Counted from the stretch's first letter, positions 1 through 4,123 are shown. The stretch: DNA of 64,000 bases from an uncultured delta proteobacterium (GCA_963794325.1 CAWCDG010000007.1:256001-320000); one strand, 5' to 3'. A program made the numbers and translations. Notes: generated from the sequence alone by a model not told the origin.

Positions 1-607
<607 letters not shown>

Positions 608-720
608 ACTATAACTTAGCGAAGATTTGCAATCTGGCCTGCAAAGTTGGGCGCAGCCTTCAAATGCTCAGTCGAATGATGCCCTCGCGCTCGCCGTTGC
701 AATGCAGGAGAGGGTCGAAC

Positions 721-1184
721 AGCCTGCCCTGAGCCTTGCCGAAAGTTGAGGGTCCTTCTGAAGTGGCACAGGCTTTAGCCTGTGATTCTTCTTCCGCGCG
801 CGATTCAAGATTCCGCTCCGCATTCTTGTCCTTGTGTCATTCCAGAGCGCGTCCGGATGAGCCGCTTCCACCAGCCGAAGCCCTGAGCGCACCCGAAGGG
901 GAAGAATCCCGCCTCCGATCTTCGCCTCGCCCCGTCAGGGCGAGGATCGAAGAGCCTGCCCTAAGCCTCGCCGAAGGGTGAGGGCCCTTCTGAAGTGGCA
1001 CAGGCTTTAGCCTGTGATTCTTCTTCCGCGCGCGATTCAAGATTCCGCCCCGCATTTCTTGTCCCTGTGTCATTCGGAGCGCATCCCGATGATTCCGCAT
1101 CCACCAGCGGAAGCCCTGAGCGCAGCCGAAGGGGAAGAATCCCGGCTCTTCTCTTCCCCTCGCCCCGTCAGGGCGAGGATCGAA
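721..1184. repeat. tandem ~232-bp duplication built from nested REP-like palindromes
   Basis: Copies start at 721 (AGCCTGCCCTGAGCCTTGCCGAA) and 953 (AGCCTGCCCTAAGCCTCGCCGAA). Both contain GTGGCACAGGCTTTAGCCTGTG, TGTCATTC..GAGCG...GAAGAATCCC and CCTCGCCCCGTCAGGGCGAGG. Confidence 0.9.
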
Positions 1185-1234
1185 GGTGAGGGTCCGCTTA
1201 CGGCGCGCGATTCTCGCGCGCGAGTTTGGATTCT
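1151..1234 (+). repeat. left arm of the ~85-bp inverted repeat flanking the methyltransferase-nuclease cassette
   Basis: CTCTTCCCCTCGCCCCGTCAGGGCGAGGATCGAAGGTGAGGGTCCGCTTACGGCGCGCGATT... matches the reverse complement of 4038-4123. Confidence 0.85.
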
Positions 1235-1545
1235 TTTCTCGCTCAGACTGTTGCCAGCGATCTGGGAATTGGCCCACCAATCGAACCGGAAGTTCTCAAG
1301 TGGCCCGCAAGTTGAGTCGCCCTTGGTGCGGTCTTGAGAAAGTGCGGTTCATGACAACCGCTGTCCGTACTAATCAAAAATGTGCACGAAGCTCACGCCT
1401 CAGTATTTGGAAACCGCTATTCGCGTGCTACGATCCACTCGGTTTCGTTAGGGGGCATCGAGTTCGTTGGTTAAACGTCAGCCATACGTGCAAGGCAATG
1501 CGGGCCACTGCGGTCGGAACGCAATCTAGCGTCCGAGCGCCGAGA

Positions 1546-2353
1546 ATGCTCAAACTTCCGTTCGGTCCGGAAGCTCTCCGCATCCGTCCGCCGCTCAAAT
1601 GGGCCGGCGGAAAGCGATGGCAAGTGCGGCATCTGCACGACAATCTGGAGACCACACAATCATCGAAGACTGGTCGAACCGTTCTGCGGCGGTCTCGCTA
1701 TTACACTAGGACTGGCACCTTCTTGCGCACTACTTAATGATGTGAACCCTCACCTCATTAATCTATATCGCTGGTTAAAAAGAGGACTGAAGCCAACGAT
1801 CTCGATGAAACACAATTCCAAGGCATATTACGCGCAGCGCGTTCGCTTCAACGAATTGCTGTCAGCCGGCAAGGCTGATACTGCCGAAGCTGCGACATTG
1901 TTCTACTACCTGAATCGAACCGGCTATAACGGACTTTGTCGTTTCAATAACAAGGGCCACTTCAACGTTCCGTTCGGTCGCTATAAGAAGATCGACTATC
2001 GTAGCGATTTCACTGAATATAAGAAGGCCTTTGCCCAGTATGAGTTCACGAATACCGATTTCGAGAAGCTGGAGCTTCATCCCGAGGATTTCGTGTACGC
2101 TGATCCGCCTTACGATGTAGAGTTCACTCAGTACTCGACGGGCGGCTTTGGCTGGGAAGAGCAGGAACGCGCAGCAGAATGGCTGGCAAAACATCGCGGT
2201 CCGGTAGTGCTGTCGAATCAGCGGACAGAGAGAATAGAAAAGCTATATGCGAAGCTCGGATTCTCCGTCACATTACTATCTGCGCCACGGCTAATCAGTT
2301 GTAACGGCGACAGAACCCCGGCGCGGGAAGTATTGGCGACGCTCAACCTGTAG
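1546..2353 (+). CDS. Dam-family (D12 class) N6-adenine DNA methyltransferase with a +1 frameshift near 1640
   Basis: PPLKWAGGKRW in the first frame continues after one extra base as IWRPHNHRRLVEPFCGGLA...LLNDVNPHLINLY, then FYYLNRTGYNGLCRFN, FNVPFG and catalytic YADPPY. Alternative start at 1498. Confidence 0.9.
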
Positions 2354-2357
2354 TGCC

Positions 2358-2771
2358 ATGCCCGGAAACACTCGAACCGGCAGTGTTCTGGAATTAACAA
2401 TCCTGCCTGCCTTAGATCGTGGCGGCTACCACCATCGCGCGCAAATTGAGATTGGCCAACGCCTCGGCTGCGGTAAACACATAGTTGATATAGTCGCAGA
2501 GAAAGATGGCCGCGAGTTCCTAATTTCGTTAAAGTGGCAGCAAGTCGCTGGCACAGCGGAACAGAAGGTCCCGTTTGAAGTGATATGTCTCTTAGACGCA
2601 ATCGAACGGGGAAGGTACTCCAAGGCGTACTTAGTACTCGGAGGAGAGGGATGGAAGTTACGACAGTTTTATATAAATGGCGGCTTGAACCGCTTTCTTT
2701 CTGTGGAAGATAGGGTCGAGATCGTCACATTAGAAGGATTTATCGCTAAAGCAAACTCGGCGCGGCTATGA
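2358..2771 (+). CDS. PD-(D/E)XK superfamily nuclease (restriction-endonuclease-like)
   Basis: VDIVAE...LISLKWQQVAGTAEQKVPFE fits D...SxK with a relocated Glu; starts 4 nt after the methyltransferase stop. Confidence 0.75.
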   Translation: MPGNTRTGSVLELTILPALDRGGYHHRAQIEIGQRLGCGKHIVDIVAEKDGREFLISLKWQQVAGTAEQKVPFEVICLLDAIERGRYSKAYLVLGGEGWKLRQFYINGGLNRFLSVEDRVEIVTLEGFIAKANSARL

Positions 2772-2777
2772 GTAAAA

Positions 2778-3617
2778 ATGGCTGACGACAATCTCAAAGA
2801 TCAGCGCGCGGCGTTCGAGTTCCTACGCGAAAAGTTCCGCTCCCAGGATGCGTTCACAAAGCACGATCTTGAGCAGAAAACCGGCTGGGTTTGGAAATCG
2901 GTAACTACATATTGGTCCAAACAGTTCGAGCCCTTCGTCAAGCCAGTCTCCCCGATCCTAAAGGGGGCTGCGCAGAAAGACCAAAAGTTCAGAGTAACTA
3001 GAGCGTTCTTGCCTTTTGGCACGTGGACGAAGTTCCGTCGGCACGTCAGCCAGAAGCGGCGTCTAACCTTTCACTACGATCACACAAGCTACGACACAGT
3101 TCTGTTGTTCGATTTTTTTCTCCCGCTTACGAATGAAACAGTGCTTCGGATGTCTCTCGATTCCCTGTTCTACAAGGACACAATCCAGAAGCAGCTACTC
3201 GCCATTGGCATTCAGACACTACGCACGCACTTCAAAGGTGCCGAAGGCGCAAGCGACGACGCTTTCCTACAAGAACTTACCGGGTGGATTGGCGATCACT
3301 TCGGAGGCTATTCGATCAGCCACGTCAATGGCCGATTTAAGGCGCGACCCGATAAAGGCGAACCAGCGATGCTCACTATGCAAGAGGCAACGGCACTTCA
3401 AGAACGCGCCGGGCGGTATCTCATTGACGAAACCACCGCGATCACTCGCTTCATCTTTCCGTGTCACGATAGGGAAGAGGCTGAAACGGTTCGATGGTTC
3501 TTCTTCGAATTATTCGTCGAAAGCGTAACCGAAGTAAGTGGCGAAGCTGAAGTTTGGATGATCGAGAGCGGTCTGCAAACTCGTTTGCATATCTGGAATG
3601 TCAAACAAGAATCGTAA
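2778..3617 (+). CDS. hypothetical protein, 279 aa; possible N-terminal winged HTH and C-terminal PII/ferredoxin-like domain
   Basis: In the operon, 6 nt after the nuclease. FTKHDLEQKTGWVWKSVTTYWSK looks HTH-like; later pattern FFLPL...HFGGYS..NGRF...IDE...EAEVWMIE. Confidence 0.7.
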   Translation: MADDNLKDQRAAFEFLREKFRSQDAFTKHDLEQKTGWVWKSVTTYWSKQFEPFVKPVSPILKGAAQKDQKFRVTRAFLPFGTWTKFRRHVSQKRRLTFHYDHTSYDTVLLFDFFLPLTNETVLRMSLDSLFYKDTIQKQLLAIGIQTLRTHFKGAEGASDDAFLQELTGWIGDHFGGYSISHVNGRFKARPDKGEPAMLTMQEATALQERAGRYLIDETTAITRFIFPCHDREEAETVRWFFFELFVESVTEVSGEAEVWMIESGLQTRLHIWNVKQES

Positions 3618-3966
3618 GATCAGTCAGGTTAGAGTTCGTCCGGCTATTGGCGACACCGACGTGCGGGTTTGGCTGCGCGCGAATGGCTACGACGACGTGG
3701 CCGATCAAATTGATCAAATGATGGTTCGCTGGAAAGCGCAGGGCAAGGCAACCCGGCGCAACTGGTGGGAAATTCTCGCCGGAGACAAGAGTGGCAATCC
3801 TCGCATTGCTGGAGGCAAGAAGTTTCCGATATTGCGCGCTGCGCGTATTCGGCAAGGTCTCGGAACAGATGTCCCAAACTTGCTGTGCAGAAACGTAAAC
3901 GAACAGGCACCCCCTGTCCGCAACCCTCCACGATGGTCCGGAGAACGAGGGCAACGTTCCAACTGA
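3598..3966 (+). CDS. basic hypothetical protein, 122 aa
   Basis: Overlaps the previous gene's end. Trp/Arg-rich core WLRANGYDDVA...TRRNWWEILAG...FPILRAARIRQGL. Confidence 0.7.
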   Translation: MSNKNRKISQVRVRPAIGDTDVRVWLRANGYDDVADQIDQMMVRWKAQGKATRRNWWEILAGDKSGNPRIAGGKKFPILRAARIRQGLGTDVPNLLCRNVNEQAPPVRNPPRWSGERGQRSN

Positions 3967-4037
3967 AAGTTCTCCCATGGTCGCGCTCTATGACCGCGCC
4001 GGCGCGACCATTCCCAATCACCGGCCAACCCAGGAGC

Positions 4038-4123
4038 AGAATCTTGAGTCGCGCGCAAAAAAATCGCGCGCTGTATGCGGACCCTCACCTTCGATCCTCT
4101 CCCTGACAGGGCGAGGGGAAGAG
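4038..4123 (-). repeat. right arm of the ~85-bp inverted repeat; further REP-like hairpins continue to ~4250
   Basis: Reverse complement reads CTCTTCCCCTCGCCCTGTCAGGGAGAGGATCGAAGGTGAGGGTCCGCATACAGCGCGCGATT... Confidence 0.85.

Follow-up and report, generated by a model that had tools for sequence, protein, structure and literature searches.

A four-gene cassette around a Dam methyltransferase

Restriction-modification (R-M) is the commonest bacterial defence and is usually seen as a two-gene unit, sometimes accompanied by a small controller. Here we describe a cassette of four co-oriented genes near one end of a 64,000-nucleotide (nt) stretch of DNA from an uncultured delta proteobacterium (GCA_963794325.1 CAWCDG010000007.1:256001-320000), referred to below as the window. 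The cassette encodes a Dam-family methyltransferase, a minimal nuclease and two further proteins, which we call gene 3 and gene 4 (Table 1). The four genes are a real, conserved module. Its methyltransferase and nuclease belong to known families and are unremarkable within them; what is new is the gene 3/gene 4 accessory module, which is widespread.

An initial annotation, made from the sequence of the window alone, had noted four tightly packed genes, more AT-rich than their surroundings, and had read them as an R-M-like module against phages in which the two extra proteins might provide targeting, sensing or regulation. Their coordinates and spacing are reproduced here (gaps of 4 nt and 6 nt, then an overlap of 20 nt between gene 3 and gene 4), as is the difference in composition, with a GC content of 0.49-0.53 over 1600-3800 against 0.56-0.62 in the flanks.

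Table 1. Features of the cassette and of its immediate surroundings (positions in the window)
Feature	Position	Strand	Basis and remarks
Dam-family N6-adenine DNA methyltransferase	1546..2353	+	PF02086, TIGR00571; split across two frames in the window
Minimal PD-(D/E)XK nuclease, PDDEXK_11	2358..2771	+	137 amino acids (aa); PF20472, phrog_6124
Gene 3, predicted winged helix and PII-like/SAM-lyase-like domain	2778..3617	+	279 aa; AF2 model, structural matches
Gene 4, small basic protein	3598..3966	+	122 aa; overlaps gene 3 by 20 nt
Upstream boundary, tandem ~233-nt dispersed repeat	707..1222	no strand	Repeat comparison
Downstream boundary, inverted copy of the dispersed repeat	4052..4123	no strand	89% complementary to 1151-1222
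Phd antitoxin	330-572	-	PF02604, 2.1e-13
PIN/VapC protein	1-333	-	PF01850, 8.7e-5, exactly at the cut-off

The assignment of the first gene to the Dam family of m6A methyltransferases was borne out by matches above the respective cut-offs to PF02086 (3.8e-29; 102.6 bits, cut-off 22) and TIGR00571 (6.7e-41; 140.7 bits, cut-off 114.85), both obtained with the 203-aa C-terminal part encoded by 1742-2353. The translation of this part contains ADPPYD, and LKWAGGKR and VEPFCGG are found in frame 1 and frame 2, respectively; we take these to be the catalytic DPPY motif and the motifs of the N-terminal part that bind S-adenosylmethionine (SAM). Against PADLOC v2 the protein matches methyltransferase models and, weakly, one further model, PD-Lambda-5_B.

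In the window the methyltransferase starts in frame 1 at 1546 and shifts near 1642 to frame 2, in which it reaches the stop at 2353; without one extra base its length would be about 268 aa. Contigs from the Logan assemblies of four public metagenome runs were aligned to 1300-4000, and the base at window 1642 (1640-1645) is missing from the contigs of all four runs, so that Dam is probably intact in the population and the extra base probably reflects a rare variant or an error of assembly. One contig of 128 nt without this base is otherwise identical to the window, at a depth of only 2.5, and a 6112-nt contig from a relative that is ~94% identical spans 1313-3968 with no further insertion or deletion within the genes. 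The best-matching run is perhaps the window's own source sample, and to that extent the evidence on the frameshift is not fully independent.

The four genes recur as a unit

Homologues of gene 3 are numerous, with 475 of 857 scored candidates matching at E <=0.001. For the comparison of gene neighbourhoods, the best 80 of 240 relatives in a metagenome scan were retained, and two further loci were drawn from species genomes and two from genomes of the same phylum. The 84 loci (L numbers below; the window's own locus, L003, is excluded) were scanned with hidden Markov models built iteratively for each component. The nuclease family is present in 67 and gene 4 in 73; the methyltransferase is of the Dam class in 36 and of the beta class (PF01555) in 21. 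The commonest orders are Dam-nuclease-gene 3-gene 4, seen in 20 loci, and the same arrangement behind a beta-class methyltransferase, seen in 17, many of the other loci being interrupted by contig ends.

Clustering at 90% gene 3 identity left 70 clusters, 28 of them with a representative that has enough flanking sequence (1500 base pairs (bp) or more on each side, or else a minimum of 1700 bp upstream with 400 bp downstream). All four genes are held by 23 of these 28 non-redundant loci. Four others (L040, L056, L073, L080) have a methyltransferase with gene 4 and gene 3 and no nuclease, and the remaining one (L041) has methyltransferase, nuclease and gene 3 without gene 4. Gene 4 adjoins gene 3 in 43 of the 44 representatives that have at least 400 bp on both sides, and the order of the genes is kept among proteins only 40-50% identical. 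The cassette initially recognized in a single sequence is thus a recurrent four-gene unit. The initial annotation had named as a refutation the occurrence of genes 3 and 4 independently of methyltransferase or nuclease genes; for the methyltransferase no such separation was observed, since every one of the 28 loci carries one.

Loci with a beta-class methyltransferase are scattered over three places in a 51-row tree of gene 3, which indicates that genes 3 and 4 have switched methyltransferase partner more than once. Given this switching, it is unlikely that they read the sequence specificity of the methyltransferase. The nuclease-less form of the locus, Dam-gene 4-gene 3, falls in one supported clade of the same tree.

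Gene 4 and the fusion proteins

Gene 4 has a core of ~65 aa marked by W25, L26, R53, R54, G62, G66, F76 and P77. An AlphaFold2 (AF2) model built from a 28-sequence alignment (predicted local distance difference test, pLDDT, 84) has three short helices and a hairpin. The best match of this model in a fold search of the Protein Data Bank (PDB) has a Z score of 3.3, so that no fold is assigned to it, a result that does not imply a novel one, and the ESM Atlas gave scores of 0.78 or less only.

The gene 4 domain also occurs joined to other proteins. Among 24 longer proteins (P numbers) that carry the gene 4 domain, 15 match PF02086, one PF01555 (P0133) and four AAA_15/AAA_21, and four have no Pfam domain. 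Both orders occur, with the domain behind Dam at L023:34-1308 and in front of it at L081:2575-3786. P0136 and P0232 are gene 3-gene 4 fusions by sequence, and P0141 combines the gene 4 domain with the C-terminal domain of gene 3 in one protein. In P0146 (774 aa), the sole long relative of gene 3 that came to light, a further C-terminal region is attached to the gene 3 C-terminal domain. This region matches type II methyltransferase models (PADLOC MTase_II, 1.1e-5) and aligns weakly, at E 0.4, to the SAM-binding and NPPY-type motifs of M.TaqI, which makes it TaqI-like. In P0142-P0145 the gene 4 domain stands at the N-terminus of an AAA_15/AAA_21 ATPase. The ATPase part of P0142 matches the PADLOC candidate PDC-M56A at 1.6e-127, so an unrelated candidate defence system shares the gene 4 domain.

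The fusions of gene 3 and gene 4 reach methyltransferases of three classes and an ATPase, and we call gene 4 a methyltransferase-associated adaptor-type domain, with a putative adaptor role. Co-occurrence and fusions alike link the two proteins to the methyltransferase and not to the nuclease.

A minimal methyltransferase-nuclease pair

The nuclease belongs to PF20472, PDDEXK_11 (43.1 bits, cut-off 23.7, 4.5e-11), and matches phrog_6124 at 3.6e-19. Its relatives score up to 159.5 bits against PF20472, and all the nuclease variants are members of that family. A search of PDB sequences returned AF1548 at E 0.41 only, and our literature search found no paper on PDDEXK_11. The D...SxK...E pattern first noted in this 137-aa protein corresponds to D44, S57-x-K59 and E68, and the alignment of 68 family members agrees with it, since D44 (61 of 62 letters), K59 (63 of 63) and E68 (61 of 65) are near-invariant. 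Position 57 is Ser in 26 of 29 members of the Dam-linked group, in which E12 is likewise kept in 26 of 29, and the canonical Glu in 15 of 18 members of the group linked to beta-class methyltransferases.

The site of the Dam-linked nuclease resembles an active PD-(D/E)XK site in which one acid has been relocated. In variants of the Cfr10I/NgoMIV type, D...SxK is combined with a second acid supplied from elsewhere. The Dam-linked nucleases may be likened to these in that they have D...SxK and keep E12 and E68; the PDDEXK_11 protein differs in being far smaller, at 134-163 aa.

PF20472 is found in 14 of 101 related genomes, the window's own included. Twelve loci surround these hits in the relatives; six have all four genes and six have Dam and nuclease alone, as judged within 1.5 kb on each side. 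The pair is also present without gene 3 on an Alicyclobacillus plasmid, beside an Abi gene, and in the cyanophage S-RIM50 (L102, 1584-2905), where a methyltransferase gene is directly followed by a nuclease homologue. Homologues of the small nuclease occur in 39 records of T4-like cyanophages. As the pair stands alone in relatives within the genus, on a plasmid and in a cyanophage, it looks like an ordinary minimal type II R-M pair, with the nuclease as the likely restriction partner of the methyltransferase. It follows from the same occurrences that a nuclease beside a methyltransferase does not depend on genes 3 and 4. A 101-aa gene after the pair on the Alicyclobacillus plasmid was considered as a relative of gene 4 and rejected (hhalign probability 0.14).

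These observations bear on one part of the initial annotation, which had supposed that a nuclease of 137 aa has little room for a domain that recognizes sequence, and that the two extra proteins might help it find its targets. That idea is weakened by the six relative loci in which the pair is alone, by the plasmid and S-RIM50 pairs without gene 3, and by the four of 28 loci in which genes 3 and 4 remain with a methyltransferase and no nuclease. Support for the R-M-like module as first conceived comes from the recurrence of the unit, from the lack of a PADLOC match for its nuclease, gene 3 and gene 4, and from neighbours that are often defence genes. One annotation is gained, that of PDDEXK_11 as the nuclease partner in minimal methyltransferase-nuclease pairs.

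The comparison with named systems left little beyond the methyltransferase to be recognized. PADLOC-DB v2.0.0 holds no family that matches the window's nuclease, gene 3 or gene 4 at E <=0.1, and none that matches four relatives and a gene 3-gene 4 fusion at E <=0.01; in NCBIfam, too, there is no match for these three proteins. Genes 3 and 4 have no match in Pfam, NCBIfam, PHROG or PADLOC v2, so that the description of the 279-aa and 122-aa proteins as unknowns holds. In the literature searched, neither a methyltransferase-linked bacterial homologue of the SAM lyases, nor a protein combining a winged helix with a SAM-lyase-like domain, nor this set of genes is described.

Structure and conservation of gene 3

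An AF2 model of gene 3 (22-sequence alignment, pLDDT 84) predicts two domains. The N-terminal domain (residues ~1-93) is modelled as a winged helix, with MarR/PadR-type matches at Z 6-6.7; residues T44, Y45, W46, S47 and K48 of its recognition helix are invariant or nearly so across subtypes. The C-terminal domain (~99-279) is modelled as a beta-alpha-beta-beta-alpha-beta fold. In an all-against-representatives search with residues 99-279 the best match was the SAM lyase Svi3-3 (6zm9; Z 8.7, rmsd 2.9, 120/129 residues). The six best structural matches, ranked among Foldseek's top 1000 chains, are all SAM or SAM-AMP lyases (6zm9, Z 8.7; 6znb, 8.6; 9gad, 7.1; 9gab, 7.1; 9lqe, 7.0; 9lqd, 7.0), and canonical PII proteins rank below all six, at Z 6.0-6.5. 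Foldseek itself gave 6zm9 and 6znb a probability of 1.00, yet weak E-values (7e-3). When gene 3 was searched against BFVD, small uncharacterised phage proteins came out on top (best E 6.9e-4); the ESM Atlas had no usable match. With best chance matches typically reaching Z 7-8, we consider the fold of the C-terminal domain credible at the PII-like level and a specific kinship to the lyases suggestive.

Known SAM lyases scarcely resemble one another in sequence (PMC7877911). Two reports (PMC7877911, PMC12255297) describe the lyases as requiring very few residues, among them a Glu at the junction of the T-loop end and beta3 (E69/E71) and a Gln of the B-loop (Q104/Q108), along with Gly56 and Tyr58 before the T-loop, and place the ligand between the subunits of a trimer. 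The lyase-like domain of gene 3 has its own set of invariant polar residues at strand ends and in loops, namely N119/E120, G185-R186, D217-E218-T219-T220, E256 and E263. The model places G185-R186-F187 near where beta2 ends, D217-E218-T219-T220 where beta3 starts and E256 within the loop between alpha2 and beta4.

The profile of this domain gathers 368 clusters at 50% identity, 168 of them at E <=1e-30. Most share the architecture of gene 3, and a few have other N-terminal domains. In P0190, P0227 and P0282 the N-terminal region in front of the SAM-lyase-like domain is an unrelated one; it spans 150-370 aa and matches no Pfam family.

Loss, distribution and neighbourhood of the accessory genes

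The window's genome contains a second Dam, 60% identical to that of the cassette, which stands by itself, flanked by a VWA gene and an MBL-fold gene (L087, G000:C6:129431-133090, 1405-2217, minus strand). At the same locus in relatives, Dam is accompanied by the nuclease in L091 and L096, and by the nuclease and gene 3 in L041, a metagenome contig. These loci have the appearance of a stepwise decay series ending in an orphan methyltransferase, which implies that genes 3 and 4 go first and the methyltransferase last. A comparable state is seen in two metagenome-assembled genomes of one lineage, Vicinamibacterales or Acidobacteria (L001, L002), where Dam and nuclease are intact and genes 3 and 4 are broken or have been fused by a deletion: in L001:5986-6801 a truncated gene 3 is joined in frame to the tail of gene 4, and in L002:6001-6650 gene 3 is split into several frames.

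Within the phylum gene 3 is rare and patchy, being present in 3 of 401 genomes with the window's own counted, and DNA identity among copies from the genus is no more than ~65%. Searches of IMG/VR, 50,697 phage records and 72,556 plasmids yielded no relative of gene 3.

Elsewhere the cassette has neighbours such as AIPR abortive-infection proteins, DUF3800, a C5 methylase and an Mrr_cat protein. A protein of 577-584 aa directly follows gene 4 in several beta-class loci (L014:2093-3826, L015:3163-4896, L025:4530-6263, L044:6220-7953 and L048:6202-7956). The copy in L044 matches AIPR PF10592 at 2.8e-33; the four others were assigned by similar N-terminal sequence alone. In the beta-class subtype a motif near TGATCAACGATCC occurs twice, as a direct repeat, just upstream of the methyltransferase gene. 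Repeats of this kind lie at L015:640-700 and L053:3590-3650 and are present also in L011, L025, L048 and L057; they could be an operator or a methylation-sensitive site.

A proposed role for the accessory pair

Based on these observations, we suggest that the cassette is a minimal type II R-M pair joined by a methyltransferase-associated accessory pair that couples SAM or methylation to restriction or defence, a reading to which we give a little less than an even chance. Gene 4 would tether gene 3 to the methyltransferase. Gene 3 would form a PII-like trimer in which SAM is bound, and perhaps cleaved, at the subunit interfaces, its winged helix holding DNA meanwhile. Together the two proteins would couple the supply of SAM, or the activity of the methyltransferase, to restriction or defence. 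They might do so by reporting a loss of SAM induced by phage; alternatively, local withdrawal of SAM might keep incoming DNA unmethylated until it is cut. A more specific proposal, that gene 3 is a host-encoded, DNA-binding relative of the SAM lyases, docked to methyltransferases through gene 4, that reads or destroys SAM where DNA is methylated, is one we advance tentatively and consider rather doubtful.

Were this so, the accessory pair would represent an unrecognised layer of immunity or control and a host-side mirror of the anti-restriction SAMase of phages, with an adaptor domain that also plugs into the unrelated candidate defence ATPase PDC-M56A. A family of at least 368 clusters at 50% identity is linked, through gene order and fusions, to DNA methyltransferases of three classes, and it would share its fold with the enzyme by which phages overcome SAM-dependent immunity. 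If gene 3 does bind or cleave SAM, then hosts, like phages, manipulate the methyl donor during conflict, and the protein would offer a handle on the balance between methylation and restriction. Gene 4 would be a new adaptor domain common to R-M and to an ATPase-based candidate system.

Three groups of proteins with this fold offer points of comparison. Phage SAM lyases (Svi3-3, 6zm9/6znb; T3 SAMase) share a PII-type, ferredoxin-like fold with the gene 3 domain; an invariant Glu where beta3 begins may be a further common feature, as judged by the order of secondary-structure elements. Gene 3 differs in having no detectable sequence similarity to them, in its winged helix at the N-terminus, its long T-loop and a surplus of ~60 residues, and in being a chromosomal, methyltransferase-linked gene rather than a phage early gene; its lyase activity is putative. 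The Cas10-linked SAM-AMP lyase, second-best structural group at Z 7.1, is a precedent for a host-encoded SAM-lyase fold within an immune system. That enzyme degrades a signalling nucleotide made by Cas10, whereas gene 3 has no CRISPR context and is partnered by a DNA methyltransferase. Canonical PII/GlnK proteins provide the parallel of a trimeric ferredoxin-like fold with a long T-loop that binds partners and with adenine-containing ligands at the interfaces (Z 6.0-6.5). They differ in ranking below all of the lyases. Compared with them, the gene 3 domain is larger and has conserved motifs of its own, and the context of nitrogen regulation is absent around it.

Several results weigh against this reading. 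The best Z of 8.7 barely exceeds 7-8, the typical best value expected by chance. The gene 3 profile has no match among PDB sequences at E <=10, and its hhalign comparison with T3 SAMase gave a probability of 0.1. Between beta2 (179-188) and beta3 (215-229) of the model lies a loop of ~26 residues, as in sensor PII proteins and unlike the T-loop of lyases, for which a length of 10-12 residues is given in PMC12255297. The conserved residues of gene 3 may correspond to the catalytic places of the lyases, as judged by the order of secondary-structure elements only. In L001, L002, L041, L091 and L096, Dam and nuclease have stayed intact and genes 3 and 4 have decayed or disappeared; being lost beside an intact nuclease, they are accessory, and dispensable for restraining it. 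Finally, no upstream motif common to all subtypes was seen in 35 regions compared by eye, with no formal motif search.

Alternative explanations

It is conceivable, though we think it unlikely, that methyltransferase, gene 4 and gene 3 are a self-contained defence guided by methylation, in the manner of BREX, with gene 3 as effector and the nuclease as an optional second effector. The winged helix of gene 3 would settle on unmethylated DNA, and SAM would then be destroyed and the phage starved of it. The case for such a module begins with the four of 28 loci (L040, L056, L073, L080) that lack a nuclease within 1.2-5 kb and form one well-supported clade. The fold of gene 3, nearer to catalytic SAM lyases than to sensor PII proteins, would fit an effector, as would its many invariant polar residues, and the neighbourhoods are those of defence islands. 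In BREX and other nuclease-free methylation defences a methyltransferase is similarly kept with non-nuclease partners among defence-type neighbours; the module described here differs in consisting of three to four small genes, of which PADLOC v2 matches Dam only. Against this explanation, the nuclease is present in 23 of the 28 loci, and a destroyer of SAM tethered to an enzyme that uses SAM would harm self-methylation too. The long, sensor-like T-loop, and the placing of catalytic residues by secondary-structure order, speak against an effector of this type as well.

We regard it as similarly improbable that gene 3 is a transcriptional controller of the R-M operon, analogous to a C protein, with a PII-like domain that oligomerises or senses a metabolite other than SAM and with gene 4 as co-regulator or DNA-binding helper. 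In type II R-M systems with a C protein, as here, a methyltransferase, a PD-(D/E)XK nuclease and a small DNA-binding protein share one operon, and such systems are likewise mobile, patchy and often located in defence islands. The MarR/PadR-like winged helix (Z 6-6.7) suits a controller, and so do the TGATCAACGATCC repeats that precede the methyltransferase gene of the beta-class subtype and the dispensability of genes 3 and 4 in relatives; PII-like proteins are mostly metabolite sensors (PMC10890737). Genes 3 and 4 are, however, not Xre-type helix-turn-helix proteins (HTH_3 matched neither in the Pfam scan), and they follow the methyltransferase even where there is no nuclease and occur fused to it. 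No upstream motif shared by the subtypes was seen, although the recognition helix hardly varies among them, and a controller leaves the fusions of gene 3 and gene 4 to three methyltransferase classes and an ATPase unexplained.

Two further explanations seem to us very improbable. In the first, the module would make a DNA modification beyond methylation, gene 3 using the aminocarboxypropyl part of SAM, releasing methylthioadenosine like a lyase and acting on DNA beside the methyltransferase. Such a role is compatible with a SAM-lyase-like fold that is attached to a DNA-binding winged helix in gene 3 and to a DNA methyltransferase in P0146. No result favours transfer chemistry, which is pure inference, and gene 3 is lost where the nuclease persists, a dangerous step if protection needed it. 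In the second, the cassette would be of phage or mobile-element origin and act against restriction, with an orphan Dam and a SAM lyase, both of which are known tools of phage counter-defence. Its nuclease matches phrog_6124 and 39 cyanophage records, its GC content is low, and its spread is patchy (gene 3 in 3 of 401 genomes, the nuclease in 14 of 101 relatives). Such an origin is opposed by the lack of gene 3 relatives in IMG/VR, in the phage records and among the 72,556 plasmids; no integrase or phage structural gene was seen beside the cassette, and its neighbours are defence genes. That genes 3 and 4 lie beside the R-M pair by chance, with no functional link, is hardly credible even though the pair can stand alone; it conflicts with the presence of a methyltransferase in all 28 loci, with a gene order kept at 40-50% identity and with the fusion proteins, which already contradict it.

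Flanking sequences and composition of the window

The Phd/VapC pair that the initial annotation had placed next to the cassette was recovered, with both genes on the minus strand and both matched by their Pfam families (Table 1). Between this pair and the methyltransferase gene lies a unit of ~233 nt in tandem (707-824/939-1056 and 862-952/1095-1185), whose last 72 nt (1151-1222) have an inverted partner at 4052-4123, so that the two copies flank the cassette. Inverted repeats in these positions were considered as the ends of a dedicated mobile element and rejected. With 23 matches across the genome the repeat is a dispersed one, and its flanking copies therefore define no such element; in appearance it is like a repetitive extragenic palindromic (REP) sequence or a miniature inverted-repeat transposable element (MITE).

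A scan for promoters and terminators was uninformative, with no promoter-like sites and five terminator-like sites against 4.2 expected. Across the whole window GATC is over-represented (observed/expected 2.24 by base composition), so there is no avoidance of this site and the count does not inform on specificity. CTAG, by the same measure, is strongly under-represented across the whole window (observed/expected 0.23).

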